From NCBI GenBank assembly GCA_963733095.1, contig CAVTBV010000009.1:64001-128000 (forward strand): DNA of 64,000 bases, in the 5' to 3' direction. Under the pieces are notes generated by a model, which saw nothing but the letters and a program-made list of their open reading frames with translations, did no database searches and was not told where the DNA came from. This document shows, in pieces, positions 41,256 to 58,821 of this stretch. The stretch is from Candidatus Bathyarchaeota archaeon (GTDB lineage: Archaea > Thermoproteota > Bathyarchaeia > Bathyarchaeales > Bathycorpusculaceae). Position 1 is the first letter of the stretch; each line of letters starts with the position of its first letter. The position numbers and the translations under genes are program-made.

Positions 41256-41780
41256 GAAGCCCGAATCTACATAATGAGCGCTTTGTAGCTAAAAATTTCC
41301 CTAATGTCGGGAAGGCATTTTCCTATGGAGCTTTTTTGGAATTTGCCCAGGCATCTACCAACAATTCTTGCGGAGGCGCCACAAACTCGATAAGTTTAGC
41401 ATGCCTTTTCTTTTTTCGCGAGAACTCTTTGAGATCATGAGCTTGAAAATTTGGAAGGTTACACATGGTTCATCAATAAACTATCCGCAATTTCGGTTCT
41501 TATAATTATGTGCGTGTAGCCAAACAACAACAAACTATCTACTCAAGGTAAGTGAACAGTCATACTCCGATTATTTATTCTCCAAGTCCAGTTTCGAAGA
41601 TGCGGCGGATTTGGTGTTATGATTGCCGTGTGGTTCAGATGCAGTTTAAACAAACAAATGGCAGTGGGCATAAGCGCGCTTCTCGCATCAATATAGATTA
41701 ACTATCGCTTTCCTAAAAAATAATGACGGAATTAAATTGCCCAAAACTAATTGAAATTGTTAAGGCTTGATTTTTTTGGT

Positions 41781-41823
41781 TCAACACAATGCGAGGCTGA
41801 TATGCGCCCCTCTTTCGTCGGCA
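41781..41823 (+). repeat. Copy of the 5' module of the 52698 structured region
   Basis: TCAACACAATGCG(A/G)GGCTGATATGCGCCCCTCTTT...CGTCGGCA at both 41781 and 52698. Confidence 0.85.
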
Positions 41824-41916
41824 TCGATTATAAAATACGCGCGCATGAATATTTACCCGCATCTATTTATTTTTACACTGGAAAAAAAGTGTAGACCTCA
41901 AGTTTTCAGCAGGTCA

Positions 41917-42252
41917 TTATTTGTAATGGGTTAAAGCTACAATTAGCCCAATTATTGCGCCAAGTAAAACCAGCAAGCCGCCCAGTCCACCGCCGATGAA
42001 TCCCACAATTAACAGCACTATAGCCCAGACAAGAGTAGTGACGCTTTTTGCACCAATTACCGCTATGACGCCGCAGATTAACATTACAATTCCACTGTAC
42101 CCAAAAGAGTAGACACTCCAATAGAAGAATGATGGTCCTCCGAATCCTATTGAAAGTAAACTCAGCAGCCCAAAGATTACCAAAAGAATGCCACCGACAA
42201 GCGCTAAGATATAAGCCACTTGCCCTAAAGAAGTTCGAGCCATTTTATCCAT
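41917..42252 (-). CDS. Small Gly-rich 4-TM membrane protein
   Basis: GGAGGTGA RBS; hydrophobic ORF. Confidence 0.75.
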   Translation of the reverse strand: MDKMARTSLGQVAYILALVGGILLVIFGLLSLLSIGFGGPSFFYWSVYSFGYSGIVMLICGVIAVIGAKSVTTLVWAIVLLIVGFIGGGLGGLLVLLGAIIGLIVALTHYK

Positions 42253-42475
42253 TCACCTCCTACCTGGATTACTTGTTGAGTGCAGTCAAAAGAGTCGGTT
42301 GTTTTGCCTTTCTTCTTTTTTTGCAGTGCCACTTTTTTGTAGGCTTCCGATATAAAATTAACACATGAAATAATCTCAAACCTCCGTCATTTTCTTATTA
42401 CCGCGAATTCTAGTGTTTATCTCACCTGCACTCAATGATTTCCAGTAGTTTCCTAAAGAAAAGAAAGTTTTTTGC

Positions 42476-42802
42476 TTATGATAATACGAAGCCGATAACA
42501 AAACCAACAACGAGCCCTAATCCTAGCGGCAGCATACCCATGAGAAGTACTCCATATTGTATTGCTATGGGACCGTATGTGTCTGCAATGCCTTTTAAGG
42601 CGCCAAGACTTAAACCGAAAAATCCAAAGTAAGCAACTACGACCAGTATAATGGCCGCTATAATCGCGATCTTCAGCATCTTGTGTACTAGATAGCCCAC
42701 GATAAGTCCGATAACAAATGGAATAATCATCAAAATTAATGGTGGAATACCGCCGATGCTTCCAGAGGTAATAAAATTAATAACTTGATCTATTGCACCC
42801 AA
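42476..42802 (-). CDS. FUN14-like small membrane protein
   Basis: F.IGLIVGY.V.K.LK and GL.VGFVIG patterns. Confidence 0.65.
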   Translation of the reverse strand: MGAIDQVINFITSGSIGGIPPLILMIIPFVIGLIVGYLVHKMLKIAIIAAIILVVVAYFGFFGLSLGALKGIADTYGPIAIQYGVLLMGMLPLGLGLVVGFVIGFVLS

Positions 42803-42945
42803 AATTCACAACTCCAGACAAGTTACTTAGCGGTTCAAATTACTTATAAGCTAGTGTTGCTGTGCTCCTACAGTCACACAGCTATTTTTCCAAATGGTCC
42901 AATACTCATGCAAGTAAGAATAGTTGTTTAAGTTGGTTTTTGATA

Positions 42946-43380
42946 ATGGCTGCTCCAGATGATATAAAAAATATTCTTGGTTCAAACGAAAAGGTTGAGC
43001 TGTACATTGAAGAAAAAATTTATCATCCTCGAATTAACATTGAATCTGTGATAATTACTAATGAACGGATAATTTTTCGGCATCCTCATGCGCTTGGTTT
43101 GAAGAAGGATTACACCGATTACAGTTACAGAGACATCACAAACGTAACGTTGGACAAAGGAATATTGCGTTCAACCATCAAACTTGCACTTAAACACATG
43201 GAAGGATCGAAGGGAAGCCAGCAAGAAGGAGAAATTCTAGATTTAGGTAACTTGCCAAACGACCTTGCAGAAGAAAGATATGGTATCATCAGAGAAAATA
43301 TTGGCAAATTCCAATCGCCTTTTTCAACTGGTTATGCTAACATTCCAAACGCGGAAGCCGCGGGTTCAAATCCCTCCTAA
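42946..43380 (+). CDS. Bacterial-PH-domain protein
   Basis: ITNERIIF, DY.Y.DI.NV.L.KGIL.S.I; the 3' end runs through a tRNA-like fragment. Confidence 0.8.
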   Translation: MAAPDDIKNILGSNEKVELYIEEKIYHPRINIESVIITNERIIFRHPHALGLKKDYTDYSYRDITNVTLDKGILRSTIKLALKHMEGSKGSQQEGEILDLGNLPNDLAEERYGIIRENIGKFQSPFSTGYANIPNAEAAGSNPS

Positions 43381-43394
43381 TGCGGGTTCAAACC
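43351..43394 (+). repeat. tRNA variable-loop/T-arm fragment with partial tandem duplication
   Basis: GCGGAAGCCGCGGGTTCAAATCCC followed by GCGGGTTCAAA. Confidence 0.6.
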
Positions 43395-43524
43395 AAATAA
43401 CGAAAGTTTGTGGTTGGTGCATGACAGTCACAATATCTTATCTATCAAGCAGCCTATACTGTGTATTAAGAAATTGTATTGAGGCTTGAATAACTTAATG
43501 CAGTAAAATCAATGAAAGAAACAC

Positions 43525-45219
43525 GTGTGTTTAATGCAAAAGGAAGCAAAATTAAACTTGAACAAGAAAATATCAACAACTCTGCTCATATCAATTCTCT
43601 TAGCAAGCATTATAATTTTTGTGCTCCTTGGACCGGTAGAAATGGTCAAAGCAGACAACCAAAACAATAATTCAAACGGAGCCTCCACCTCTTGGCCAAT
43701 GTTCCATTCGGACCCAACTCATAGTGGTACAGGAACTGGCGGTCCATTACTTAATCCAACAGTACTATGGAAGTACAATACTTTTGCTGATGATTCAGGT
43801 CATGTTTATTCTTCTCCCGCTGTTGAAAATGGAGTCGTTTTCGTAAGCTCTTGGGATTTCAAAATCGTTTCCAAGAGTGTAGTCACAAATTACGGCAACC
43901 TCTATGCATTAAACGCTTCTAACGGCGACAAAATCTGGAACTGCTCAGTCGGACCAGTTACCTATTCTTCTCCTGCAGTTAAAAACGGGATTGTTGTAGT
44001 AGGTTCTTCGAGCGGTAACATTTCGGCAGTGAATGCTACTGATGGTAATCTTCTTTGGGCATACCAAACTGGCAGCAGCATTGAATCTTCTGCTGCAATC
44101 GTCAAAGACATAGTTTACATAGGGTCATTAGACGGCAATGTTTACGCTTTGAATCTTTTAACTGGTGTGAAAGTTTGGAACTCCACTATTGGCGCTGTCT
44201 ATTCCTCTCCTGCAGTTGTTAACAATGTAGTGTACGCTTGTTCTAACAATGGAGATTTCTGCGCTCTGAATGCCACTAATGGTGACCAAATCTGGAATTA
44301 CACCAGTCAAATATATTCCAACCATGGAAATTATCTCTACTCTTCTCCAGCAATCGCCAACGGCATGGTATACATGGGCTCGTATAATAATGACGCCTTT
44401 GCTTTGAACGCCACAAATGGAAAGTTAATTTGGAAGTACGCTACGGGCAGTGAAATTGCTTCATCTCCAGCAGTAATAAAGGGTATAGTTTACATAGGTT
44501 CATATGACGGCAATGTTTACGCTTTAAATGCCACCAACGGAGCAAAAATCTGGAGCATCTATCTCAACCAGATTGGTTGGTCGTCTCCCGCGGTTGCTAA
44601 CAATGTATTGTACATTGGATCAGAAGATGGTAATGTTTACGCAGTAAACGCTTTCAACGGTGCAGAACTTTGGAGTTACGATACTGGCAGTCTTCAACTT
44701 GATTCGTCTCCAGCGGTGGTTAATGGTATCGTCTACATTGGTTCATCGAATGGGTACGTTTACGCTTTTGGCACTCCTACACCTATTGTAACACCACCTC
44801 CAAGCCCAACTCCAATAATGACAGACCCCACTGCGACACCAACACCACCAAATCCAACACCAACGCCTATACCAACGGCTACATCCACTCCTCTCCCAAC
44901 CCCAACCGTAACTCCAATCCCTAACTTTACCGATCAAACATCGGCATCTACTCCTACGCCTTCACCGACCCCGACAACTACCTCAACACCTATTCCTATA
45001 TCCGACCCCACTCCTACTTCGACAGCTGCTACTACTCAGACATCTTCATCAACAGCTACAAACACTTCTACAGTTTCACCTATTCAATCCCACTCGCTCG
45101 CAGGAGTTGAAACGGATATTCTTCCTCATGAAGTCTTCTATTCCATTGCAGCCACAATCATAGCAGCCATTGCAGTCACAACGATAATAATACTCAGAAA
45201 AAAGAAAATAGAGCTTTAA
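43525..45219 (+). CDS. Surface PQQ-like (BamB-type) beta-propeller protein with P/T linker and C-terminal TM anchor
   Basis: WPMFH.D..H.G, repeated SSPAV...VYIGS.DG.VYALNA..G..IW units, PT repeats, TM + RKKK. Confidence 0.92.
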   Translation: MCLMQKEAKLNLNKKISTTLLISILLASIIIFVLLGPVEMVKADNQNNNSNGASTSWPMFHSDPTHSGTGTGGPLLNPTVLWKYNTFADDSGHVYSSPAVENGVVFVSSWDFKIVSKSVVTNYGNLYALNASNGDKIWNCSVGPVTYSSPAVKNGIVVVGSSSGNISAVNATDGNLLWAYQTGSSIESSAAIVKDIVYIGSLDGNVYALNLLTGVKVWNSTIGAVYSSPAVVNNVVYACSNNGDFCALNATNGDQIWNYTSQIYSNHGNYLYSSPAIANGMVYMGSYNNDAFALNATNGKLIWKYATGSEIASSPAVIKGIVYIGSYDGNVYALNATNGAKIWSIYLNQIGWSSPAVANNVLYIGSEDGNVYAVNAFNGAELWSYDTGSLQLDSSPAVVNGIVYIGSSNGYVYAFGTPTPIVTPPPSPTPIMTDPTATPTPPNPTPTPIPTATSTPLPTPTVTPIPNFTDQTSASTPTPSPTPTTTSTPIPISDPTPTSTAATTQTSSSTATNTSTVSPIQSHSLAGVETDILPHEVFYSIAATIIAAIAVTTIIILRKKKIEL

Positions 45220-45220
45220 G

Positions 45221-45274
45221 AAAAAAGAGAAAATGCGGGTGATATATCCACTTTCGACGGGATTCAATTCCAAC
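45221..45274 (+). mobile_element. att-like composite site 1 (motif + degenerate T-arm)
   Basis: AAAAAAGAGAAAATGCGGGTGATATATCCACTTTCGACGGGATTCAATTCC. Confidence 0.7.
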
Positions 45275-45583
45275 TTTGATTGGAAAAAGCTGAGGATTCG
45301 CCCTCGATCCCAAGTTAAGTAAGTTACTCCGACTCCAATTCCGAACTTTCTGCATGCCAAGTTTACTCAATTGTAAGGCCTCAGTCAAAAAATCGAAAAA
45401 TTAAGGTCTTTCTGAAAATCCGTCCAGAAAAAATCCACTTGGGAACAAGCTGCCGGGAATAAAGTAACGCAGGAATTGGTATTCGTCGAATGCCGTAAAT
45501 ACACCTCTGAATAGCCTATCTTTGTTATTCCTTTAAAAAAACTACCCAAATCAAGAATTATGAAAATGCGAATCGGAAAACAT

Positions 45584-45646
45584 AAAAAAAGGGTTTTGGT
45601 TGAAATCTCTTTCAGGGCGCAGGATCAAATCCCTCCCCGCCCGCCA
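45584..45646 (+). mobile_element. att-like composite site 2 (degenerate motif + tRNA 3' end CCCGCCC-G-CCA)
   Basis: AAAAAAAGGGTTTTGGTTGAAATCTCT...GCAGG ATCAAAT CCCTC CCCGCCC G CCA; same spacing and tRNA end as the 54621 site. Confidence 0.65.
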
Positions 45647-45880
45647 CAAGAAAATCTGTATCCGCAGTCACGACAGGAGTACAGCTGAACATTCCCTTTT
45701 TGTGTCTGTCTTTTTCCGTCTTTGTAGTTTCTCTGACTGCCACACTCGGGGCATGTTACCTTTGGTTTGATATAATTACCGTTGAGAACATCCTTTGAGA
45801 TGATTTTTCCACAATGTGGACAATTGAAGACTTTTTGTTACATGCTTGTTCATCCCGTATTTTTTGCCAAGTATGCCCAA

Positions 45881-45944
45881 AGAAAAATGGGGTTTTGCGA
45901 GTGAAACCTCTTCTCTTCCTGGGTTCAAATCCCCCCCCAGTCCA
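45881..45944 (+). mobile_element. att-like composite site 3 (degenerate motif + tRNA-Ala-like 3' end)
   Basis: AAAAATGGGGTTTTGCGAGTG...GGGTTCAAATCCCCCCCCAGTCCA. Confidence 0.65.
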
Positions 45945-46228
45945 CTTCAACATCAATTTTCTGATTCACAGTGTTCTAATAAAATCAAATCCAACATCAC
46001 CCGCAAAAACGTGTTAGTGCGCAGGTGTAAAAGTCTCTAACGCAGCGAATTAAGAGAAAAGAGGGTTTTCTGAGGCTCTGGACTTCATGGAGAAAAGAGC
46101 GAAATGCAGAAACGCTCTTCAACTATGACAAGGTGAATATCATCCAAAGCCTACTCAGCCCCATTTATTTCTCCGCTGTTTCTTTAAACAAAAAAAGGGA
46201 AAGGTGTTTGTTGTTTGGTTACTTTTGT

Positions 46229-48877
46229 TTATGCTCGTTTCTTTATGACTATCAATGCAAGTATTGCCCCGACTATTGCGATTGCAACAATAATTCCTGT
46301 TATTCCGGGCAGTATGTATGTGTCAGCCATTGAATGTGTTGGTTCTTGAGTTGACGCTGGGGTTGCTGCTGCGTCTACTGCAAACGATGTTTCTGCAGAT
46401 GATCCATAATATGAGTTTGAGCCTGCAAAGGTTGCTATGACAGTGTATTTGCCGGTGATATCAGGTGTCCATTGTAGGCTGTAGGCTCCGCTTGCGTCGC
46501 TGACTGTGTTTCCAATACTGCGGTAGTTACCGTTTGAATCGATAACCGCGATGCTGATTGGGACGCCTGTTGTGTTTGTCGGTTTATCTTGCTGCATGTA
46601 CACGTATTCCATCCATAGCTTCATGCTTGCGTCAGATACACATGGCACTCCATTGGGGAATTTTGCTGCTTGCTCTTCTTGTGTTGTTCCTGCAGCGATA
46701 TCGCTGACTGTGCCTCGTATTACTAGGCTTTGGCCTTGAGTAACTGCAGCTAATGGTGCATCAACTGTTAGTTTGCTGGCGCCTTTGCCAACTGAGTAGA
46801 CTTGCATGTCATAGATGTTTAGGTATGTGAAGTATCCGTCTGCAACAATGTCGTACTGGCCAACGTACATGCCTGTGCCCATTCCAGTGAGAGTCCAGAT
46901 TTCTTCGCCTGTGGTGGCATTTAAGCATCTGTATTGTGCGTCTTTGTAGAGTGGTTGGTTTGGTGAATGCTCTGTTGTTCCGACGTAGACTTTTCCGTCA
47001 GCGATGACGTCTATGAATAAGGGGTAGTGGCTATAGACTGTGTTTTCGCCTGAGTATGTACTGTTGCCTTCTCCGCCTCTGCCATAACTCCACAGCAAGT
47101 CACCTGTTGCGTCATTATAGCAGTAGACTATACCGTCGTAACCTGCAGCGTACAGATTACCATACGCACTAAGTGTGTCTCTTCTCAGGGTATCCCATTC
47201 TACTACGGGTGTTTTTGCAGTCCAGAGGTGGTTTCCGTTGTCAAGGCTGAAGCCGTTGAATTCTAGGGTTTCTTTATCTTCTGTGACAAAGGTATTTGCA
47301 ATTGAATCAACTGCTACAAGTACTCTGGTTACGTTGCTGTCGGCTGGTGCATAATACTTTGTCCATAGAACGCTGCCTGCGCTGTTGGGGTCTATTTTTA
47401 CCAAGGTTATATTTGCGCCGGAGCTTTCTGCTCTTGGACCAGCTCCCAAGTTACCTTGGAGGAGGAGTAATTTGTCACCGACAATTACGTCTCTATAGAT
47501 AGTCCAGCCTTGTCCTGTAAGCGATGATACGGATACGTTCCAATCGTACATGCGGGAGTCGGTTGCATTGAAAGATGATGTCGGGTACCAGTTGCCTGCT
47601 CCAATCTGGCCTGCTGATAGTTGAGTATATTTTGATGAGTTCCATTCGCTCAGGTAATACGTGGGGTTTGATGTAGTGCCGAGGTTTGTCAATGAGTAAA
47701 TAAGGTATTCGCCACTCGGACCTGCTGCTGATGCGCCGTTTGCAGAGTTAGCTGCTAAAGTGGCAGATGCGGCTGATCCTGAAGGAACGTTAGTTAGGCT
47801 CATTCCGGTGAGTACGCCTGTTCTAGCATCATATGCTCTCCAGACTGTTCCGAGACCAGTCACTGTGGTTGTTGCTATTAGTAGACCGTTGGGTAATACA
47901 CCATGTTGGTTTCCATCTTCGTAGGCGTACAGGTAGCCGAAGCTTGGTACTATAGATACGCCTGTTGCGGTTGTGTTGATGCGCCAATTTTCTTTGCCTG
48001 TTTGCAGGTCTACTGAAACGTAGTCTCCGCCGCTGCCTGAGTTGCCATATGGTTCTTGATAGAAGAGGTTTCCCTGCATAACGATAGCGTTACTGAAGCG
48101 GGGATTGTATGAGCTGCCTGTGTAATATCCTTCACCTAGGTTTGTGGTTGAAGTCCCGCCGACAACCCCGCCAAATTGCAATGGTTTGGTCCACATAACA
48201 TGTGAAGTCTCAGGTCCTGATCCATCTTTCTGGTATCTACCGTAACCTGAACCACCTGTAGCGGTAGCACCTGTGCGGATGTAGGGTCCATTTAGCCAGT
48301 TGGAGGATATTAAGAACCAGTCCGAGTTTTCACCGTTTATTGGTCTACTCCAGTATTCGCTTGGAAGAGCAGCGCTTGGCGATATACCTTCAGTTTGTTC
48401 TTCCTGCACAGTTAGTTTCGTTACCGCTTGCGCAGGCTGATAGACGTCGTTTTGATAGGGACCGCTCCAGGTGTGTGTTTGTCCAGCATAGTTGAAAGTC
48501 ATGGTATAGGTTCCTACTGTATCAGGGGTAAACGAGTATGATTGTATGCCTGTTGTATCTTGAACTACAGCCCAAGTTTCAGTCTTGCTTGTCCCGTCCG
48601 GTTGAGTAATAGTCAATGTGTAGTCATGTCGACGAACGTCGTTGGTCACCAACGCACCATTTAAGGGTATATCAACCCACATGTAAATGTACACTGTCTG
48701 ACCAATCCCCACAGGATTTGGAGCAGCAGATACATAAGCGTATGATTTAATGTCCCAAGCAGGTGTATGTCCACTAGCAGTAGATAGAGTCGTCAATGGA
48801 ACAGCAATGGATACTACTAGAAACAACGTAATAATTGACAGTGCCTTTTTCGATAATGTATTTTTTTGTAGATTCAT
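46229..48877 (-). CDS. Large secreted PQQ-like beta-propeller protein with Ig-like domains and C-terminal anchor
   Basis: Signal peptide, PNPVGIGQ, YW.RPI, W-containing propeller repeats, IADGKVY...EHS, G.YTV.ATFAGS.SYYGS, TM + KKR. Confidence 0.88.
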   Translation of the reverse strand: MNLQKNTLSKKALSIITLFLVVSIAVPLTTLSTASGHTPAWDIKSYAYVSAAPNPVGIGQTVYIYMWVDIPLNGALVTNDVRRHDYTLTITQPDGTSKTETWAVVQDTTGIQSYSFTPDTVGTYTMTFNYAGQTHTWSGPYQNDVYQPAQAVTKLTVQEEQTEGISPSAALPSEYWSRPINGENSDWFLISSNWLNGPYIRTGATATGGSGYGRYQKDGSGPETSHVMWTKPLQFGGVVGGTSTTNLGEGYYTGSSYNPRFSNAIVMQGNLFYQEPYGNSGSGGDYVSVDLQTGKENWRINTTATGVSIVPSFGYLYAYEDGNQHGVLPNGLLIATTTVTGLGTVWRAYDARTGVLTGMSLTNVPSGSAASATLAANSANGASAAGPSGEYLIYSLTNLGTTSNPTYYLSEWNSSKYTQLSAGQIGAGNWYPTSSFNATDSRMYDWNVSVSSLTGQGWTIYRDVIVGDKLLLLQGNLGAGPRAESSGANITLVKIDPNSAGSVLWTKYYAPADSNVTRVLVAVDSIANTFVTEDKETLEFNGFSLDNGNHLWTAKTPVVEWDTLRRDTLSAYGNLYAAGYDGIVYCYNDATGDLLWSYGRGGEGNSTYSGENTVYSHYPLFIDVIADGKVYVGTTEHSPNQPLYKDAQYRCLNATTGEEIWTLTGMGTGMYVGQYDIVADGYFTYLNIYDMQVYSVGKGASKLTVDAPLAAVTQGQSLVIRGTVSDIAAGTTQEEQAAKFPNGVPCVSDASMKLWMEYVYMQQDKPTNTTGVPISIAVIDSNGNYRSIGNTVSDASGAYSLQWTPDITGKYTVIATFAGSNSYYGSSAETSFAVDAAATPASTQEPTHSMADTYILPGITGIIVAIAIVGAILALIVIKKRA

Positions 48878-48933
48878 TTGTTTTTTTCTCCTTTTGTGGC
48901 TTAATGTTTGTAAATATAACAGTAATAAGGCTG

Positions 48934-48950
48934 GCTCACCTATCGTGAGT
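48934..48950. promoter_or_regulatory. Palindromic operator copy 1 (GCTCAC-N5-GTGAGT)
   Basis: Inverted repeat repeated at 49138; lies in a divergent intergenic region. Confidence 0.65.
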
Positions 48951-49137
48951 ACAAAATTCAGCCATAGTTCCACAAAAAGAGGCAAAGAAGAAAAATATAA
49001 ATCAAAGACAACAACGAATAACGATGCATTAGTGTACGATTGTAGAAATTGTCTTTTTATTTTTGATTTTCTAGCAGACTCATTTTTTTCCTTCTTTTTA
49101 TGAACCTTTAAACATGTAAGAAGCGCTAATAAGCTTC

Positions 49138-49154
49138 GCTCACTTATCGTGAGC
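49138..49154. promoter_or_regulatory. Palindromic operator copy 2 (GCTCAC-N5-GTGAGC)
   Basis: Near-identical to the 48934 copy; both preceded by TAATAAG. Confidence 0.65.
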
Positions 49155-49322
49155 TCGAAAAACCGTTTATTGGCTAATCTTCACCGAGTATTTTGCCAGC
49201 TACCTTTTTGTAACTGGCGTCAAAGAGAGGATGCCAATAAGTCACACAAATCTGTCGTAAGTATAAAATATTAAGTAAACTATACGAGATTGTTAAAGAT
49301 ACACTAATGGTGAATTTACACG

Positions 49323-50015
49323 ATGGACCCTTATGCTTATCAAACATTCCGAGTTATCTATGAAGTTACTTCGGCTATTTTTTGTTTTGTTCTTGTAAGA
49401 TTCATGATTAAACCCTACCAGATCACTAAGGAGAGTCGATACCTTGGACTGCCTCTCGGATTTGGGTTTCTTGGAGCAACCTACGCTTTATCTTCCTTTG
49501 TTTACTTCAAACCATATTTTTTTGGCAGTGGAACAATATATTTTCAACTCGTAGTAAGAACTTTCGCATTTATTTTTCTGTGCGTTACTTATTATTTTTC
49601 AAGGAAAAGTGGCGATAGTAGAAGGCTCTGGAATACTACTTTGGCTTTATTAATTATCGCTTTTGTAGCTTTATTTCTGCTCGTTACTATTCCTAATGTT
49701 GCTCTACCTAGTTATCAGCTTACAAGTACCTTTACCAGATTCTTCAATCTAATTTGCATCGCTTATCTTTGTGCCCACACTCTTAGAAGCCATATAGAAA
49801 AGCCCGATCCAGAAACGCTTTGGATCCCATTTGGTTATTTTCTTCTGGGAATAAGCCAGTATTCACTAATCATTTATTCTATAGACAATAGTATGTCTGC
49901 GTGGTGGGGGGCACTGGCAATTCGTTGGGTAGGTCTAGCCGTGTTTCTTTTTGTCACAATCAAATCTTTTTACGGCAACAAAAAGAGGAGAATAAATGAA
50001 ACAAATCGCACGTAG
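49323..50015 (+). CDS. 7-TM membrane protein (possible sensor)
   Basis: Seven hydrophobic segments; overlaps the downstream wHTH gene. Confidence 0.75.
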   Translation: MDPYAYQTFRVIYEVTSAIFCFVLVRFMIKPYQITKESRYLGLPLGFGFLGATYALSSFVYFKPYFFGSGTIYFQLVVRTFAFIFLCVTYYFSRKSGDSRRLWNTTLALLIIAFVALFLLVTIPNVALPSYQLTSTFTRFFNLICIAYLCAHTLRSHIEKPDPETLWIPFGYFLLGISQYSLIIYSIDNSMSAWWGALAIRWVGLAVFLFVTIKSFYGNKKRRINETNRT

Positions 50016-50274
50016 AGACAGAATGAAAATTTATGGCGACCTTTTGTCAATATTGTACGCCGAAAGTAGAGAAGAAAAAATAGTGTTAACGCATGTTCAA
50101 GTACAGATTAGAGTTCCTTTTGATAGGTTAAAAACTTACATATCAGAACTTAATGATTTAGGCTTAATTGAGGATCAGACTTCGCTTAAGCTTACAGAAA
50201 AAGGTAAACAGTATATCATTGAATACAAGAAAGTTCTTGATTTTATGAAACGCATGGGCGTAGCCTACCGGTAG
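49996..50274 (+). CDS. Winged-helix DNA-binding protein
   Basis: RRDRMKIYGDLL, YI.EL..LGLI, LTEKG; AGGAG RBS. Confidence 0.85.
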   Translation: MKQIARRDRMKIYGDLLSILYAESREEKIVLTHVQVQIRVPFDRLKTYISELNDLGLIEDQTSLKLTEKGKQYIIEYKKVLDFMKRMGVAYR

Positions 50275-50629
50275 ACAATACCAAAATAGTTGAATCAATG
50301 AATGATACTACTACTCTATAACCGATACTTTGAATTTTATGGATTTAGAGGAAGGTACATTGGTTAAGCTCTGCGTATTTATTGGGGAGGTCAGAGTAGA
50401 AAGACCTCACTTACTGATAGGTTTGTTTTTGTGATGGGTTGTTTTAGGATGACAGTATTTGTTCTGCTTTTTGTTCGTCAAAATTGTGTTTAGACAGTAG
50501 CTTGTGCCATTCGAGGTGAGCGCAAAGTAAGTATCGGGTGATTCTTGTAAAACCCCAATTCGTTGGCAAACATAACTCGCTCTTGACTCTTGCCCATGGA
50601 ACATATAAAATGAAGTAAGAGTTAGCATT

Positions 50630-50662
50630 AAAAATGGGAATTGCGGGTGTACACTTCACTAT
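50630..50662 (+). mobile_element. tRNA-less copy of the att-like motif upstream of the integrase
   Basis: AAAAATGGGAATTGCGGGTGTACACTTCACT versus AAAAAAGGGAATATGCGGGTGATATATCTACT at 56718. Confidence 0.55.
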
Positions 50663-50718
50663 TAGTTAGCTTTTGAGATAGTTTGATATACCACACAAAA
50701 CATGTGGAGTGTGGTTGA

Positions 50719-52095
50719 ATGAATTTGAGTGAACAAACGTTCCTTGACTCAGTATCAAACCCAAAAACAAAAAAATGCTACAGATACGGACTAAAAATAT
50801 TCTGCCAATGGTACGGACAAACAGCAGAACAAATCCTTGAACTAAGAAAAGACGACCTAACACAGCGCGTCGGGGAAAACCTGATTGAATACCGAAACCG
50901 AGCATCAAGATTTGAAAAAGAAATAGAAAAATTCCACACATACCTTTCAACAACAAAAAGCATCAACACCGCAAGAGTCCAAACATTAGGAATAAGACAA
51001 CTCTTCAGATACTATGAAATGCCTATGCGCTTTAGAAATGGAAGCAAGATAGCTAAAACCGTCAAAACAACCAAAAACTTTCCCCTAACAATCGAACACG
51101 TACGGAAAATGTTTGACGTAGCAAACCTAAGAGAAAGAGTAATTCTGAGCACCGCTACTGATTTAGGCTTAAGAATAGGCGATTTCATGAACCTCAAAAA
51201 ATCAGACTTACCTTCATTAAATCAAGAATCGCCCATTTCCTTTGAAATAATGACTGAAAAAGAAAACGTTTTAGCTTGTGGATTCTTAAGCGAAGAAACA
51301 GTTGACCTTCTTAAAATCTATCTTCCAACATTAGACCACAAAAAAGATAATCCCTACCTTTTCCCTTCAAACGGAAACAGAAGCATATCAGACGAATGGT
51401 TAAACCGTCTGCTACAGAACTTAGCAAACAAAGCAAAAATAAACTTAAACGGCAAAAGAGTAACCTTTCACTGCTTTAGAAAAATGTTCCTCTCAGCATC
51501 CATTGACAGCGGAATAGGCTTAACAGCTGGTAAAAAATTGTGCGGAAAAACAATAGCCCAATCAGACGACACATACCTAACCGTCGTTAACCTCAAATCA
51601 AAATTCCTACAAATCAAGAAATTCTTAACCATTAAAGAACAGCCAAACCTTGAAATAGAGCAAATTGAACCCTTAAAAAATGCGATAACTAAGCTTCAAA
51701 GCGATTTAACAGAGCAAAAGCTAATTACTTCTGTAATTTCTGAGGCGCAAAACAATAGAATTAAAGACATTGAAAAGAAACTTTTTTCCGTACAGCCTGA
51801 TGTGGAATGGGAGAAATATCTTTCAGAACATCCAGACGAATTTGAACGATTTGAAAAACAACATGAAGAACGTCTGAAATGGGGAAAAGAGCATCCAGAA
51901 GTCGTTAAAAAGCAAACAGAGCAAATTGACAAGAAATTTAGAGAATATGAAAAATGGCGAGAACAACATCCAGAATTAAAAGAACAAGAAGAAAAAACAT
52001 ATGTTGAACATCTTGAAGACCGAATAGTTGAATTAGAAAAAACTCTGCAAGAGCTTGCAGACTTTGTTAGAAAAAGACCAGAAGGAAATACTTGA
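50719..52095 (+). CDS. Tyrosine recombinase/integrase with a long charged C-terminal extension
   Basis: N-terminal T.K.YR..L..F SAM-like domain, GLRIGD (R), YLFPS, FHCFRK (HxxR), DDTY (catalytic Y). Confidence 0.92.
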   Translation: MNLSEQTFLDSVSNPKTKKCYRYGLKIFCQWYGQTAEQILELRKDDLTQRVGENLIEYRNRASRFEKEIEKFHTYLSTTKSINTARVQTLGIRQLFRYYEMPMRFRNGSKIAKTVKTTKNFPLTIEHVRKMFDVANLRERVILSTATDLGLRIGDFMNLKKSDLPSLNQESPISFEIMTEKENVLACGFLSEETVDLLKIYLPTLDHKKDNPYLFPSNGNRSISDEWLNRLLQNLANKAKINLNGKRVTFHCFRKMFLSASIDSGIGLTAGKKLCGKTIAQSDDTYLTVVNLKSKFLQIKKFLTIKEQPNLEIEQIEPLKNAITKLQSDLTEQKLITSVISEAQNNRIKDIEKKLFSVQPDVEWEKYLSEHPDEFERFEKQHEERLKWGKEHPEVVKKQTEQIDKKFREYEKWREQHPELKEQEEKTYVEHLEDRIVELEKTLQELADFVRKRPEGNT

Positions 52096-52133
52096 GTGGA
52101 TTTTAAAAGCAGAAGGAGGAGAATTAATTATTC

Positions 52134-52682
52134 ATGTCAAACCAGTCAAAGCCAAGTAACTCTTGCAAACCAACTAAGAAGCCGCCTCGCCCAATTCCTA
52201 AAAATAGGTTTCCCGAAGGCATTCAATTATGTAAAGACAATATTGCCGACTTCTTAAGTGATGCCCGCAATGTTTTAGCCAACGGTAAACCCTACCATGC
52301 CTATATCTTGTTTGAATTTGCCTTAGAAGAATTTGGTAAAATAATTATGCTAAAAGAAGCAAGAGACGACCCAAACAATAAAACTAATGCAGCGCAAGTT
52401 CCTGAGCATGTTTTTACTAACCATCGGGGTAAATGCGATAAGGCGATTGATGTTTTAGGTACGGATTTAAAAACCCTCTACAATGGTATCTGGGCTAAAG
52501 GTATATGGGCACCAGGCATTTGGGGAGAAAGCGAGGTAGAAGTGGGTCATAACACGCGACTAAAGTGTGCCTTCGTTGATTATCTCAATAACAACTGGAC
52601 TATTGGCGACAACGCAATCACAAAAAGCAACTTGACCAGTTTAATAGAAAAATTGGATGCCCGCACCAAATTGGAGAAATAG
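52134..52682 (+). CDS. AbiV-family (HEPN-like) abortive-infection protein
   Basis: DN..DFL.DA..L..G..YHA..L..FALEEFGK...F.NH..K pattern recalled from the AbiV family; GGAGGAG RBS. Confidence 0.7.
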   Translation: MSNQSKPSNSCKPTKKPPRPIPKNRFPEGIQLCKDNIADFLSDARNVLANGKPYHAYILFEFALEEFGKIIMLKEARDDPNNKTNAAQVPEHVFTNHRGKCDKAIDVLGTDLKTLYNGIWAKGIWAPGIWGESEVEVGHNTRLKCAFVDYLNNNWTIGDNAITKSNLTSLIEKLDARTKLEK

Positions 52683-52697
52683 CCATTAAAGGACTTG

Positions 52698-53070
52698 TCA
52701 ACACAATGCGGGGCTGATATGCGCCCCTCTTTTCTTTTCGTCGTCGGCAAAAAAGCCCCGAACATCAGCCCAACGGGTGACACGCTTAAATGTTGGAAAT
52801 TTGCAGCAAATTTACAACTTTTAAGCGTTTCATTCGGGGCTTTTTTGCAGTAGTAACCAAAAACAACCGTCTGGTGTAGCATCAACAACAAACGGTCGAT
52901 TATCACAATGCGGTTCTTGACTGCGTTGCCCTCACAATGTAGGGCAACATAGGCAAACAAAGGTGCTCTGCGACATTTCCGCACATACGGCAATGTCCAG
53001 AGCACAGCAACCAACCGTTAACCATTGGATAGCGGAACCGTCGGGGCGAACCAACGGTCGCCACGATAAA
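52698..53070 (+). ncRNA. Candidate ~370-400 nt structured non-coding RNA or structured DNA element
   Basis: At least seven stem-loops separated by A/C-rich linkers, G-U pairs on the + strand, no credible ORF. Confidence 0.55.
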
Positions 53071-53274
53071 AGCAAAAATAGTGTTAAGGCTTAATTCTGC
53101 AAACCAAAAGAAGCACGGCAAGAGAATTTAAAAGAATAGACAAGTTCTCATAGCTTAGGTCGTTCGTCGTCGTCTTCACTTGATATAATAACACAAATCT
53201 CGACATGAAACAATGGATAATATGTGTGTAAAATAAGACATAAATTGAGGAAATGGGATAGGGTATTGTGATGG

Positions 53275-53430
53275 TTGAAGCATACTTTGAAAGTCTTATT
53301 GAAAGTAACTACCACTGAGAACGGTTCTCGAATTTGCAGTGTTCCTATGAAGAGATTAAAACAGTTGACTTCTGGTCGTAAGTTGGTTTGGTCTTTGGAA
53401 GGGGAATGGCTTGTTTTGGAGTCGTGTTGA
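53275..53430 (+). CDS. AbrB/MazE/SpoVT-like microprotein 1 (51 aa)
   Basis: Manual translation MKHTLKVLLKVTTTENGSRICSVPMKRLKQLTSGRKLVWSLEGEWLVLESC. Confidence 0.6.
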   Translation: MKHTLKVLLKVTTTENGSRICSVPMKRLKQLTSGRKLVWSLEGEWLVLESC

Positions 53431-53580
53431 TTGAAGGTAGTTTTGAGGATTTCTAAGAAGGGGAGTCAAGGTGGTTTTCATGTTGGCAGTGTTCCTATGA
53501 AAAGGCTGAAGCGGTTGGCTTCTGGTCGTCAACGCTTTTGGAAGCTTGAAGGAGATAGTTTGGTTCTTCAATCTTCTTGA
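53431..53580 (+). CDS. AbrB/MazE/SpoVT-like microprotein 2 (49 aa)
   Basis: Manual translation MKVVLRISKKGSQGGFHVGSVPMKRLKRLASGRQRFWKLEGDSLVLQSS; paralog of the preceding ORF. Confidence 0.6.
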   Translation: MKVVLRISKKGSQGGFHVGSVPMKRLKRLASGRQRFWKLEGDSLVLQSS

Positions 53581-53804
53581 TTCTACCAAAAATATGAAAA
53601 GAAATAAAAAAAAATAGATTTTATACCTTATCTCTCTCCATTTAAACCTATCTCATGGACTCAGAAAAACAAATACTGAAGGATTTCCATTTGAGAAAGT
53701 GGATATGTTTGACATTTTCTCACAACAACCTAAACTGAATTTAGTCAAGAGACTTTGACAAGCATATTTTTTAGGTAGGTTAAACCAGTGGTTAAGTGAT
53801 TGCT

Positions 53805-54551
53805 ATGGGCAAGAAAGCAGTTGCTGTAGGAATAATTCTCGTTATTCTGTCATTATCTTTACCTTTAGCATTTGGGTATTTTGAAACCAATATTATAGAT
53901 ACCTCATGGACTGGCAGTGCTACACAATTTTTGAATAATGCACAACCTTATCCACAATGGAAAGACGAATACACTCTGAATGCTTACACCATAACTCTGT
54001 TTGAAAATGGGACAAGCACTTTTGTTAATGCTACTAATGGAGATAGCTTTTCTTCTTATCTTCTAAATGTAATGACAAGAGCTGACAGTCAGATGAGCTC
54101 CGTGAGTGATGCTTTTGTTAATAATGTAACTCAGAATGATAAGGTAGTTTATTTACGAAGCAGATTGGGCACTAACTTTGCTCAGGCAGGAATTTTTGTT
54201 TGGGATACATATTTTGTATTGGAAGATAACCTGTATCAAGGGAGTTTAAAGGGAACAATATTCATAGAGCATGATTCTGACAATGTACGCACATGGCAGC
54301 ATTGGGCTATACTACTAGGGCAAAGCCCTACACCTAGTCCTACACCTGTTCCAACTCAAAACCCTACACCAACACCAACTTCTCAACCCACAGCTAACCA
54401 AAATAATTCACCTACACAAAACCCAACAGCCAATCCCACTCCAACTCCTACCATTCCAGAGTTTTCTTGGTTTATTATTTTGCCTTTGTTCCTTGCAATA
54501 CTCTCTATTGTTGTCCTAATTAGAAAGAGAAAAGTACCTTTGATAAAGTGA
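53805..54551 (+). CDS. Secreted protein with P/T/Q linker and PEF-CTERM-like sorting signal
   Basis: Signal peptide; C-terminal IPEF + TM + RKRK. Confidence 0.85.
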   Translation: MGKKAVAVGIILVILSLSLPLAFGYFETNIIDTSWTGSATQFLNNAQPYPQWKDEYTLNAYTITLFENGTSTFVNATNGDSFSSYLLNVMTRADSQMSSVSDAFVNNVTQNDKVVYLRSRLGTNFAQAGIFVWDTYFVLEDNLYQGSLKGTIFIEHDSDNVRTWQHWAILLGQSPTPSPTPVPTQNPTPTPTSQPTANQNNSPTQNPTANPTPTPTIPEFSWFIILPLFLAILSIVVLIRKRKVPLIK

Positions 54552-54620
54552 AAGCCTTTTATTTAATAATCACATTAGCAATGTTGGTATATCAATAGCT
54601 TTAGAAATCAAACTAATAAT

Positions 54621-54675
54621 AAAGTGTTCGGGTGATATCTCCACTTGAACGTAGGTTCAAGTCCCACCCCGCCCG
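54621..54675 (+). mobile_element. att-like composite site 4 (motif + tRNA 3' end CCCGCCC-G)
   Basis: TCGGGTGATATCTCCACTTGAAC GTAGG TTCAAGT CCCAC CCCGCCC G. Confidence 0.75.
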
Positions 54676-54823
54676 TTTTGAGTCGAGGGATTATTTTCGT
54701 TTTCTGAATGATAAGACCTTCTCTTCCTACTATACCCCAAGATTTTGAAAGGTCTTGCGTACATAGCAGCATCAAAAAGGATATAAAGAGAGACTGACGA
54801 CCTCAACTCAGGAGATAAACCCG

Positions 54824-55138
54824 ATGCCATTTTGCAATAAATGTGGAAAAGAGATATCTGATGATATGAAATTCTGCCCAAATTGCGGAACGCCCATTGG
54901 AATGGAGGAAGAGAGCTTTTCTGTTTCCTCTGAAGACTTGGTCCAGAAAGTCAAAGAATTGTTTCATGAAGGAAATGTCAGGCGAATAACTATAAAGAGC
55001 TAAGAAGGCAAAACTCTGCTCGACATTCCCGTTACAGTCGGAGTTATAGGAATTGTCCTAGTTCCCTGGCTTGCCGCGATTGGAGCCATAGCGGCTTTAG
55101 CTACGAATTGCACTATAGTGGTTCAAAGGCAGAAATGA
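54824..55138 (+). pseudogene. Zinc-ribbon + DUF4342 protein with an in-frame TAA at 55001
   Basis: FCNKCG...KFCPNCG, LVQKVKELFHEGNVRRI.IK*EGKTLLDIPVTVG...PWLAAIGAIAAL. Confidence 0.85.
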
Positions 55139-55177
55139 GTTAAAAGCAAAAGGTCTTCCACGAATCGGGCGCCATAG

Positions 55178-55279
55178 GATAAGTCAGATTCAAAAATAAT
55201 TATTGTATTTTATACGTTCTGATGATAAGATATTTTCCGGAAGGACCTTCCTCTATGGGGCCCAGATTTTGGAGGCCTT
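55178..55279. repeat. Dispersed ~110-bp element, copy B
   Basis: Homologous to 40185-40293. Confidence 0.65.
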
Positions 55280-55487
55280 GGTGCCGCCTTTTGCTTTATA
55301 ACAGCGTACGTTGCAGGATCCATGGGCATTTTATGCACTTAAACACATACACTTATAAGCTGTGTATGCACTTATGTACTAATGTGAATAAGCGGGGACA
55401 AAACATGACAAACAGAAAAATCGAATACACAAATTGGTTACTCGCTTATTTCAACAATATCTAACCAGCAAAAAGAAGTGACTAAAA

Positions 55488-55631
55488 TTGGGCCGCATCA
55501 ACGTTGACATCTCAGACGACTTAGAAAAACAGCTCAGATTAAAAACCGTAGAGCAATTCGGAGGCAAAAAAGGCGACTTATCCAAAGCGGTCCAAGAAGC
55601 AGTAAAAACATGGGTCGAAATAAACCAATAA
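55488..55631 (+). CDS. 47-aa ribbon-helix-helix protein
   Basis: Manual translation MGRINVDISDDLEKQLRLKTVEQFGGKKGDLSKAVQEAVKTWVEINQ. Confidence 0.8.
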   Translation: MGRINVDISDDLEKQLRLKTVEQFGGKKGDLSKAVQEAVKTWVEINQ

Positions 55632-55792
55632 AGTCGTCCCTCCTCAAACCATCAATAACTATATTATAAGAAGCCTAGGTAAAAGGCCCGGGTAAGCCAG
55701 CTAGCCTGGAACACCTCACATGAGGATTATGGGCAATCTAGCTGCAAAAACCCTTTTTAGAATGTTTTCCAAGCAAACAACGATAATCTCTT

Positions 55793-56017
55793 TTAGCTGT
55801 TACCTTTCGGTACATTATTAGCAAGTTCGCTTTCGCTTCTTAATTGTCGTTTTAGATAAGCAACTACTTCAAAACTTTGATTAATTTGAAGCGCAACAAT
55901 AGAAACCAATTCCCACCCATCTAAACCATATTTATTCAACAACTCTTCTTGTGTTTTGACACCGGCATCCAGGATTCCTTTCACCAAAGCTATTGAGACA
56001 TACTCCCATTTTGTCAT
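55793..56017 (-). CDS. DUF4177-family protein
   Basis: KWEY...LN.YG.DGWELVS...YLKR. Confidence 0.8.
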   Translation of the reverse strand: MTKWEYVSIALVKGILDAGVKTQEELLNKYGLDGWELVSIVALQINQSFEVVAYLKRQLRSESELANNVPKGNS

Positions 56018-56717
56018 GTTTGAACCTCTAACAACATTATTTTTCTCTAGAACTGAATTAACCAAGTAGTATTTTTCTTTTGAGGTTTATTTAGTTGAGA
56101 TACAGAAGACGTCAAAAACCCCTAAAAAGCGGGTCGGATGGAATTAAGAGACTTTGGCGCAACCAATTTTTGGAAAGAAAATAAAAACCCCTGCAGCAAC
56201 TACTTATCGAGAACGAAGAAACCAAGAACCCTGAAGACACACGGACCAAAATACATATTCCTTTTGAAAAATATTCTATCATGGTAAACAATAAAAGAAG
56301 TGTATAACAAGATGGAAATCATGAAAAAATCGATAAACGTCACAAATGGAGAAGAACCCCCTAACCCTAAACCAAACCCTAACCCTCAGCCAAATCCAAT
56401 CCCAAATCCAATTTAGTAAGAGCTTTTGCTTCATCTATGAATCCTATGAATCTTAAAACCTGAAGGATGTAAGCGTCATTGCCCTCACCAAATCCGGGCT
56501 ACCTTCCTTTAACTGTAATTTACTGCTGAACGAGTTTAGCAGCATAGACTTATAGCAGAGGAATTGTGCTGACTTAGTAGACGCAGGCATAGCATTTTTG
56601 GTTGTCGCGCGTAACTCGGCAGTGATAGGGAATCCCGCGGGGTATGGACGTAGACGCACTATAGTAGTCCACGAAGAACACCACGATTAATATCATTAAC
56701 GTGAAAAGATTACAATT

Positions 56718-56780
56718 AAAAAAAGGGAATATGCGGGTGATATATCTACTTTGCGAGGGGTTCAAATCCCGCCCGGTCCA
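56718..56780 (+). mobile_element. att-like composite site 5 (motif + tRNA-Ala 3' end)
   Basis: ATGCGGGTGATATATCTACTTTGCG AGGGG TTCAAAT CCCGC CCGGTCC A; CCGGTCC-A carries the U70 typical of tRNA-Ala. Confidence 0.78.
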
Positions 56781-56972
56781 TAAAGCGATCCAAACCCTGC
56801 AGAGTTCAAAACCTATTGCGGATTTATACCGTTTGAGATGTGGGACTGAGGCTTAGGACCACGCGGCAATTTCAATATTACTCTTCGTATTATGCGATGA
56901 TTAAAAAAAGAAATAGGGTGTAGGCGTAGTACCTTTGCAGGTTGCCCTCCCTTGTGCTTCAGATAAGCCAAT

Positions 56973-57542
56973 CTATTTGGGAGGAGGGGCTACTTGGGTT
57001 GCAGTTATTTTTCGGTGATAGAATCTGGCGGCAATGCTTAATCCTGTGGCGACGAAAGCCAAGTAGAAGGGCCAATTGAGAGCGGCTGAGACGTTAACGC
57101 TGGTGTTTGAATTTTGACGAGTAATTGTAGTTGCACCGATCAGAGGCAAACTGAAGCCTCCCAAGGATTGTGCTATTAGAGGTAAAGCAACTATTACTGC
57201 AATAAACGCTACGAGTATGTACAGTGGTTTTTTGTATCCAAATCCCAGTAGATGCTTTGAGTAAGGCGCAGTTGGTTTTACGGAGTAGATCGTTAGTGCT
57301 ATTCCGCCTGCCAGCAGGGTAAGTAAGCATGCTATGTTCAAGGCCAAAATCAAGGGTATTGCAACTGAAGTCCCAGAAATTGAAAGGTTAACGTTAACTG
57401 GAGAGAAATCAACCTGAGCATTCACTGGGGTTCCGGCCATGAACTGCCACCATGGAACAAATAGCGAAATAACAACCAGCAACAAAGTTGAAATTCCTGC
57501 AGCCAACGCAATAAAATTAATTTTGGTTTGCATCATAATCAC
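56973..57542 (-). CDS. Four-TM membrane protein
   Basis: SLFVPWW motif and hydrophobic helices; coupled to the upstream ORF. Confidence 0.75.
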   Translation of the reverse strand: MIMMQTKINFIALAAGISTLLLVVISLFVPWWQFMAGTPVNAQVDFSPVNVNLSISGTSVAIPLILALNIACLLTLLAGGIALTIYSVKPTAPYSKHLLGFGYKKPLYILVAFIAVIVALPLIAQSLGGFSLPLIGATTITRQNSNTSVNVSAALNWPFYLAFVATGLSIAARFYHRKITATQVAPPPK

Positions 57543-57543
57543 C

Positions 57544-58203
57544 TTAACTTATTATTTCGATGTTACCGATATCCTGTGGTGACGAGCCCAAGTTTGTTAC
57601 GCCATTAACAGTAATTGCACCGTTAATTACTGAAACGTCCACTGATGAGAAACCGCTGTAGTTCTGGGCTAAGTCAGCTTGACCTTCTTGTGTCAAAGCA
57701 CCCGAAACAGTTACAGAAACAGTTTGACCAGAACGAACCGTGACAGGGGCATTGTTGAGGCTTAAAGTTCCCAATTGATATTGATCCGCTGTGATTTCAA
57801 CTGCTCCACCCAATGAATTTATCGTCGCATCTTGGTTATCATTGTTGGTTATACTGAAGGTTAACGTTATCGTATTTTTAGACGTGTCAATTTGTCCGCT
57901 AATGAAAGATGGGTTTAATCTGTTTGAAGAAATATCATTGTTGTTATTGTTATCCCCGTTATTTCCATTGCCGTTATTGTTGTCGCCATTTGGGGCGGTG
58001 ACGATGTTTTGATTATTATTGCTGTTCACGCTGTTGCCATTATTATTGGAGTTATCGTTGTTGTCCGAATGCATGAGTTGTTGCAGTTGAGGAGTGACTA
58101 CCATTTGGGGCAAATTATCAAGGTGCATTACCACCACTGCTCCAATTGGTCCTAAAACGCATCCAATGCTAATTAACGCCAGAACAATACGTAACACTTG
58201 CAT
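57544..58203 (-). CDS. Membrane-anchored protein with Asn-rich linker and beta-sandwich (LEA-2-like) domain
   Basis: N-terminal TM, poly-N/D/G tract, LTFSITN...V.SGQTV.VTVSG. Confidence 0.7.
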   Translation of the reverse strand: MQVLRIVLALISIGCVLGPIGAVVVMHLDNLPQMVVTPQLQQLMHSDNNDNSNNNGNSVNSNNNQNIVTAPNGDNNNGNGNNGDNNNNNDISSNRLNPSFISGQIDTSKNTITLTFSITNNDNQDATINSLGGAVEITADQYQLGTLSLNNAPVTVRSGQTVSVTVSGALTQEGQADLAQNYSGFSSVDVSVINGAITVNGVTNLGSSPQDIGNIEIIS

Positions 58204-58743
58204 CTTAGCTCATCTTCTCGTAAGCCACGATATTTTCATTATCCAACATTTTAAATCATCAAAAAATATCAACCTTCTCCAATTAATTATGACTTATGAA
58301 TTGGCAATTCATGTTCATACCTTGGATAAATTCATCCTAGGTTAAATGAGCCAGAAAGGACTCATCCGGAGAAACTTGAACCGCTTCAGGGCAAATCCTC
58401 TTTTTAGATCTTTAGGCAAAAACATGATCGAGACAAAAAATTGGCTGTTATTTCCAGGGACTCGTTTTCTTTATGGCAAGGTGCAGATTATTTTTTTTGA
58501 CCTCTCCAAGCTGAACACATGGCTGCTACAACGCCGAATTTGGCTGCTATTATGAAAACTTCTCTTAGCGCTAAAATGAAAGGATTAGCTATGCTCTTGA
58601 GGGAAATAGTTGTCACTAATGTCAGAGCTATATGGTAAGAATATTGAATGCCGACTGAGATTTAGATAATAATTTAAATAAGTAACCACTTGAGAAACAA
58701 AATTCTAATATTAAGCATTGCAGTGTGTTTATCAAACACCCGT

Positions 58744-58821
58744 GGGCCGGTCGTCTAGCCTGGTTAGGACGTTGGCTTTACGAGCCAAAGGTCGCCGGTC
58801 CGAGTCCGGCTCGGCCCACCA
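58744..58821 (+). tRNA. tRNA-Val(TAC), CCA encoded, no intron
   Basis: GGGCCGG/TCGGCCC acceptor, TTGGC-TTTACGA-GCCAA anticodon arm, GCCGG-TCCGAGT-CCGGC T-arm, ACCA. Confidence 0.93.

Follow-up and report, generated by a model that had tools for sequence, protein, structure and literature searches.

Gene content and structure of the locus

The analysed stretch of DNA, hereafter the window, comprises 64,000 nucleotides of contig C9 from a Bathyarchaeia genome (G000; 2.84 Mb, 43% G+C). In the related genome G091 the part corresponding to window positions ~39911-58702 is missing, and the membrane-protein gene that ends at 39855 in the window is followed there by ~335 nt and then by tRNA-Val. Judging from this comparison, the segment is an 18.8-kb composite island beside the 5' side of a tRNA gene, which places the hairpin tract described here inside that island.

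Within it, a Xer-like tyrosine integrase gene, an AbiV-family abortive-infection gene and a tract of hairpins follow one another on the + strand (Table 1). The integrase matched the NCBIfam model XerA_Arch with 70 bits, which is under the cut-off of that model. At its C-terminus it is extended by ~110-160 aa of coiled-coil-like sequence in which E, K and Q are abundant, and the homologues found elsewhere mostly align over residues 1-349 only. The next open reading frame (ORF) scored 44.2 bits against Pfam HEPN_AbiV (PF18728, cut-off 27.1) and 47.8 bits against NCBIfam AbiV_defense (TIGR04498, cut-off 27), and thus belongs to the AbiV family. These two were its sole profile matches; no ToxN, AbiQ or CptN match was obtained for this ORF, and PADLOC returned none.

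The first-pass annotation had described this ORF as ending just before a structured tract, and indeed only 15-20 nt separate its stop codon from the tract on the same strand. All the stems listed at that stage are present in the sequence as well as in the predicted fold, including the one formed by GTTGCCCT and AGGGCAAC (Pb2), and the three occurrences of CACAATG were likewise recovered. For the 408 nt between 52683 and 53090, the predicted + strand fold reached -148 kcal/mol versus -105.6 +/- 5.4 kcal/mol for 100 dinucleotide shuffles, none of which was as good (z = -7.8). Since the reverse strand gave a z of -8.25, fold energy alone cannot pick the strand. An alternative pairing or pseudoknot between CATCAGCCC and GGGCTGAT had also been proposed. 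The pairing does exist in the window copy, but it has no counterpart in the printed sequences of the other family copies inspected, and it was therefore taken as chance.

Several known types of element were considered for the tract. No tRNA or tmRNA was found at this position, and no tandem repeat array was detected between 52683 and 53100, either by TRF or by a separate repeat search. Rfam 15 yielded just weak miRNA-like matches to the long palindrome of the window tract, far under threshold. With no Rfam match for this tract or for seven other members of the family described below, a known RNA family was ruled out. A 52-aa ORF at 52695-52853 was rejected as coding because it crosses H2, whose sequence varies among copies with its pairing kept. 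The tract is also not a mimic of a CRISPR repeat: a simple k-mer scan of the genome found one CRISPR-like array only, outside the window on another contig (C1:190709-192897, ~30 repeats), and neither block A nor block B is related to its repeat.

Table 1. Positions of the genes, hairpins and repeats discussed in the text (window coordinates).
Feature	Coordinates	Strand	Basis or remarks
Truncated A-only copy, left att-like repeat	41781-41830	+	34/35 nt match to 52698-52732
Xer-like tyrosine integrase, 458 aa	50719-52095	+	Pfam Phage_integrase 5e-11; reads toward block A
AbiV-family (HEPN-related) abortive-infection gene	52134-52682	+	Pfam and NCBIfam profiles; read as cargo between integrase and att site
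Block A: tag ACAATGCGG (52703-52711) and hairpin P1 (52710-52727, GGGGC/GCCCC)	52698-52732	+	Read as right att-like repeat, 5' end of the element
H2, 102-nt hairpin/three-way domain, variant of the window copy	52747-52848	+	Fold
Extra small hairpin ACCGT...ACGGT	52868-52900	+	Fold; not conserved in the family
Block B: tag ACAATGCGG (52905-52913), Pb1 (52910-52924), Pb2 (52925-52948)	52901-52975	+	Covariance model R1, 56.4 bits, E 1e-12
Hairpin at the H5 position	52963-53005	+	Fold; variant common to metagenome copies L136 and L140
Two short 3' hairpins	53016-53063	+	Fold; position of the G+C-rich terminal hairpin in other copies
tRNA-Val	58744-58821		

Other small features were observed in the island and the genome. 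A repeat of ~50 nt, composed of an A-run, GCGGGTGAYATCTCCAYTT, a few bases and a T-arm-like GGGTTCAAATCC, occurs at 45221-45271, 54614-54664 and 56719-56769 of the window and in ~22 other places, adding up to ~25 copies in the genome at no more than four mismatches, mostly directly 3' of genes. The copies in the window gave no tRNA call and no Rfam match; the repeat may derive from a tRNA or represent a small RNA. Downstream of the hairpin tract, two tandem paralogous mini-ORFs (53275-53430, 51 aa; 53431-53580, 49 aa) are preceded by a conserved, A+T-rich, promoter-like stretch and are 89% identical to a pair in the same position at the copy of the tract on contig C13 (see below). Neither has a Pfam or NCBIfam match, and by eye we take them to resemble halves of AbrB/SpoVT-type DNA-binding proteins. 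The downstream portion of the island also contains a 47-aa ribbon-helix-helix ORF (55488-55631; RHH_6, 3.5e-7) and a 59-aa zinc-ribbon/DUF4342 ORF (54824-55003), which could be left over from small genes of a regulatory or toxin-antitoxin kind. ARAGORN predicted just 33 tRNA genes genome-wide, at an estimated completeness of 95%, and several tRNAs of this genome may have unusual introns or forms.

A family of structured elements in one Bathyarchaeia genus

On the basis of its sequence relatives, the tract is a copy of a previously undescribed family of structured, RNA-like elements in Bathyarchaeia. Full elements are ~350-430 nt long and share a layout in which a 5' block A is followed by a variable three-way hairpin domain (H2), block B and the hairpin H5. 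In more typical members, further hairpins stand 3' of H5, with a G+C-rich terminal hairpin and then a conserved A+T-rich stretch; the window copy is a divergent member. Genome G000 holds three copies (the window, C13 and C2), all with blocks A and B and each with a different H2 sequence, and in other copies too the H2 domain has a different sequence, with a similar architecture, in the same place.

Motif A, searched as a pattern with up to two mismatches, was found in 19 of 120 genomes of the genus (reversed control, 0), and R1, a covariance model that covers block B and H5, matched in 12 of the 120. When 151 genomes sampled from the whole class were searched, R1 matched in G000 only. An exact 22-mer of block B retrieved 26 metagenome contigs, 25 of them with members of the family and one (L153) rejected as a coincidence in coding sequence. 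The family is accordingly accessory (12/120 genomes) and found only in this genus and in metagenome contigs. Among the loci examined from both sources, 22 distinct full copies and 27 copies with block A only (A-only copies) were counted. In a collection of viral contigs, a 24-mer of block B had no match, and a 16-mer of block A matched 17 contigs, all in unrelated coding sequence for a CGADMR zinc-ribbon peptide, so that a viral origin was rejected.

Conservation of the helices and choice of strand

The 14 copies with the commonest H2 type were aligned over P1 and H2 with MAFFT, and RNAalifold predicted 25 pairs. In this alignment 95.7% of cells are paired versus 35-49% when the 3' partners are slid by one to three columns, double-sided changes occur in 20 cells versus two to three when slid, and none of 500 column shuffles matched the observed pairing or covariation score. 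The P1 pair of columns 14 and 25, for instance, is G.U in eight sequences, G-C in five and A-U in one. The alignment of block B and H5 comprises 32 distinct rows; 96.4% of its cells pair, and double changes are present in 44 cells. Since these rows were fitted to the model, and since the structure of P1 and H2 was derived from the same sequences, the controls for both are somewhat generous. One H5 pair occurs in all four Watson-Crick types (AU 11, CG 8, GC 5, UA 4), and an inserted stem extension is tolerated in H5. Thus the tract is a genuine multi-hairpin element with compensatory changes in both regions, which is the kind of covariation that the first-pass annotation had proposed to look for.

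A preference for the + strand, suggested earlier from G-U pairs in the window copy alone, is borne out in the family. Counted by hand in the P1 and H2 tables, G.U cells number 21 versus three A.C cells, and Pb1 contains two invariant G.U pairs, so a folded + strand is favoured. The G.T wobble is tolerated in single-stranded DNA too. The covariation backs a folded strand, for which an RNA is the simplest reading and the one we favour. Many stem columns of Pb1 and Pb2 are invariant, which fits protein-binding DNA just as well as RNA.

Block A as a putative attachment site

The first-pass annotation had also pointed to a partial copy of the tract near 41781, and this copy is real: positions 41781-41815 are identical to the start of block A in 34 of 35 nt and, allowing one indel, the similarity extends to CGTCGGCA. 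In this copy P1 retains four of its five pairs, the remaining one being broken by a G>A change. Hairpin P1, with its 5-bp stem and 8-nt loop, is located inside the direct repeat. The two A repeats, at 41781 and 52698, are 10.9 kb apart, and the interval between them ends with the integrase gene and then AbiV. The data support the earlier caveat that the tract may go with the mobile element instead of AbiV. A direct repeat of the end of the element thus brackets an integrase-encoding segment, as at RNA genes that serve as attachment (att) sites. Relative to the att repeat, AbiV is inside the mobile element, and the body of the putative RNA is outside. For the segment 41781-52732, neither an exact empty A site among the relatives compared nor a circular junction was found, G091 being without the entire 39.9-58.7 kb.

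Tandem direct A sites recur elsewhere. They bracket 886 nt with NERD only in G086, ~810 nt with a membrane protein in L136, 531 nt with a 109-aa ORF in L018, 1.3 kb in G012 and 11.4 kb in G092, and none of the single-gene inserts among these (886, ~810 and 531 nt and 1.3 kb) contains an integrase. The loci inspected had no more than two A sites each. The A-only copies have a sharp left edge at the tag, and their similarity ends variably 21-66 nt on, which is the pattern expected if incoming elements carry target ends of variable length. All P1 pairs are intact in 21 of the 22 full copies versus 17 of the 27 A-only copies, so these remnants decay. From these arrangements, we infer that block A is the crossover site.

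There is a published precedent for insertion into the 5' end of an RNA gene by an integrase that reads toward it. According to a review (PMC8371274), pTN3-like archaeal integrases target a tRNA gene in its 5' half, and the integrase promoter then drives expression of the rebuilt gene; the review also gives a reason why stem-loops with a 7-nt loop are similar to canonical core sites. In the family described here, the sequence 5' of block A is unrelated between copies and no common promoter is visible. If A is the 5' end of an RNA, the promoter would therefore come from the upstream neighbour, or the RNA would be cut from a longer transcript.

The window integrase is 80% identical over 349 aa to its paralogue at the C13 copy and to the integrases at the G089 and G086 copies; these three are 91-94% identical to one another. 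Despite this similarity their arrangements differ: the integrases of the window and C13 lie upstream of the element and are co-directional with it, and those of G089 and G086 lie downstream and are convergent, as is that of L140. Where the integrase is downstream, no second att repeat was found. Five loci (window, C13, G089, G086 and L140) have an integrase within ~0.6-2 kb of the element, the C2 copy has its own, different integrase nearby, and several full copies, G121a and G121b among them, have none within 4.5 kb. Starting from the integrase, the element was present at one of 29 loci with integrase homologues in other genomes, so that the integrase family overall is not bound to it. The element may still be an RNA or ssDNA cofactor of the integrase, the fallback idea of the first-pass annotation: the low count at integrase loci speaks against this, but block A is clearly a recombination site.

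Shared tags in blocks A and B

Block B carries the same 7-nt tag as block A: the two are identical within the copy in 22 of 24 copies and fall into four classes (AATGCGG in 14 copies, ATAGCGG in six, CTTGCGG and ATCTCGG in one each). No complementary partner for the tags was found in cis. In two loci block B itself looks like a junction. In L027 (G104), B stops at a position equivalent to that in the shortest A-only copies, and a segment with a terminase comes next; in L159 the palindromic motif Z, which elsewhere precedes A, directly precedes B. Given these apparent junctions, recombination may also take place at B; alternatively, a single factor may read both tags. The search for the other half of block B at the provirus-side junction of G104 returned chance-level matches only.

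Simple repeats rich in G and T often flank the palindromic motif GGATTAAAATTTAATCC, which occurs at several places of G000 (C2:53496, C4:2400, C12:240143, C12:245912, C14:142791 and C14:144123). The motif abuts the 5' side of block A in L020, L033, L039, L046 and L144, and lies 5' of B in L159. This palindrome may mark one end of another mobile element or serve as a binding site for a protein.

Genes upstream of the element

The gene 5' of block A is not the same in all copies. Where the window has AbiV, the C13 copy has a 172-aa protein of unknown family, G086 has NERD, G104 the Shedu protein SduA (PADLOC, 1.3e-31), G089 a DUF4145/PD-T7-4-like protein, and L149 and L144 each a TIR protein. 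Plain host genes precede the element at C2 (an ABC transporter), L145 and L151, and other copies have uncharacterised proteins there. Defence-type genes are therefore frequent in this position, and AbiV occupies it once only. Starting from AbiV, 11 loci with homologues were found in nine of the 120 genus genomes, and a match to A, B or R1 was present at the window locus only; none of the other ten has the element within flanks of 1.5 kb on either side. Homologues of the tract thus occur independently of AbiV, a pattern that the first-pass annotation had itself named as contrary to its proposal of an RNA antitoxin or guide for the AbiV protein, and that proposal was abandoned. AbiV and the RNA element appear to be neighbours through integration, with AbiV as a passenger.

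Interpretation and alternative explanations

We consider it probable that the tract is an accessory structured-RNA gene whose 5' hairpin serves as the att core of integrase-borne islands that often carry defence genes. According to this explanation, the + strand from 52698 to ~53065 would be one copy of such a gene, and block A, with its 7-nt tag, 5-bp hairpin and 8-nt loop, would double as the core att site for Xer-like tyrosine integrases in the fashion of a tRNA stem-loop. A 10.9-kb element (41816-52697), with the integrase and with AbiV as its last gene, would have recombined at A, leaving the truncated A at 41781 and putting AbiV 15-20 nt from the RNA element. Integration at A would thus make the adjacency of AbiV and the RNA something other than a partnership. 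The element would presumably be transcribed, and we would guess that the RNA helps to maintain or regulate the mobile elements or islands in which it is found. Among the public sequencing runs listed as containing this sequence there was no RNA run, and the seven DNA runs had at most 6% of the sampled words. Counted against this explanation are the near-identical integrases in two arrangements, the lack of a second att repeat at the convergent loci and the non-conserved upstream sequence.

The same observations could be read at the level of DNA only, with A and B as integrase-binding or crossover sites, the hairpins as terminators or an arm-type att architecture, and no functional RNA. This is unlikely, though it accounts for part of the data: one 7-nt tag in both blocks, in four classes and with no cis partner, would be expected if a single protein recognised both, the Pb1 and Pb2 stems are invariant, the junctions in L027 and L159 fall at matching positions in A and B, and the H2 stem of the window and of subfamily 1 has T-runs on both strands. 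However, H2 and H5 have stayed paired despite many double changes, down to all four Watson-Crick types at a single pair, H5 accepts an inserted stem extension, the excess of G.U over A.C points to a single folded strand, and in A-only copies P1 decays. The position of the tract, just 3' of the AbiV stop codon on the same strand, speaks for an RNA antitoxin or regulator dedicated to the AbiV/HEPN protein; we regard this reading as very improbable, given that the ten other AbiV loci are devoid of the element, that no other full copy examined has AbiV upstream, that tandem repeats are absent and that the att repeat separates AbiV, inside, from the RNA body, outside.

Between these stands a role of the folded + strand or RNA in recombination itself, in which the tags would help the integrase to choose or unite sites, or the A hairpin would be an attC-like substrate for cassette capture. 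The concerted evolution of the A and B tags, the single-gene inserts without an integrase of their own between tandem A sites and the nearby integrase in five loci are consistent with it. On the other hand, tyrosine recombinases, to our knowledge, need no RNA, the element accompanies one in 29 integrase homologues of other genomes, several full copies have no integrase close by, and arrays of A never exceeded two sites per locus among those inspected, so that we hold this role to be quite unlikely. A bolder extension, to which we give a similarly low probability, is that block A is a reusable capture site, where a Xer-like integrase strings short and frequently single-gene defence cassettes before a structured RNA; this RNA, which has the tag a second time, would act in recombination as a folded att arm, a guide or a scaffold. 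If true, this would be an archaeal, RNA-linked analogue of the integron platform.

Several consequences follow from the preferred reading, that of an accessory RNA gene used as an att site. A false lead is removed, as AbiV is here without an RNA partner. Instead, a new and well-supported candidate structured RNA of ~350-430 nt is added to the Bathyarchaeia, for which we know of almost no described non-coding RNAs. A non-tRNA gene, the candidate RNA, would act as a hot spot for defence genes deposited by integrases (AbiV, NERD, Shedu, TIR and PD-T7-4-like), and its motif could be used as a flag to find archaeal defence islands. In addition, the concerted tags of A and B turn site recognition by this integrase family into a testable question.

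Comparison with known systems

The closest parallel is with tRNA and tmRNA genes used as attB, especially the pTN3-like targets, in which a structured RNA gene likewise has a dyad-symmetric stem-loop as core site, a truncated direct repeat of the gene end is likewise left, and the integrase adjoins the intact gene and reads toward it (PMC8371274). Unlike those genes, the element is not a tRNA, has ~350-430 nt, is accessory (12/120 genomes), occurs in three copies in G000, is itself in variable islands and, in block B, contains a further site related to the first.

Type III toxin-antitoxin systems (ToxIN, AbiQ/antiQ, CptIN) also have an abortive-infection gene beside a non-coding structured sequence. 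Their antitoxin consists of tandem direct repeats adjoining the toxin gene, whereas the tract has no tandem repeat array and lies downstream of the gene instead of upstream, the protein is AbiV/HEPN and not ToxN/AbiQ, and the RNA and the protein do not co-occur across genomes.

With integron attC sites and cassettes, the family shares a tyrosine recombinase, a hairpin site and short single-gene inserts, several of them with defence genes, between repeated sites. Integron attC sites are conserved mainly in structure, and the cassette arrays lie beside intI/attI; block A, in contrast, is conserved in sequence, no more than two sites per locus were seen and the cassette orientation varies. An integron array was rejected on the site number and the sequence conservation of A.

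In P4-like satellites and prophages, defence hot spots adjoin int/att, and the variable defence cargo between integrase and att site (AbiV, NERD, Shedu, TIR, PD-T7-4-like) is alike; here, the host is archaeal and a putative structured RNA gene is the fixed border. Finally, IS110 and IS1111 elements have DEDD recombinases with bridge or seek RNAs, and they similarly encode, at the edge of a recombinase element, an RNA containing sequence identical to the recombination core. The recombinase of the family described here differs in being of the tyrosine type, not DEDD, and no loop-encoded guides are evident in its candidate RNA.
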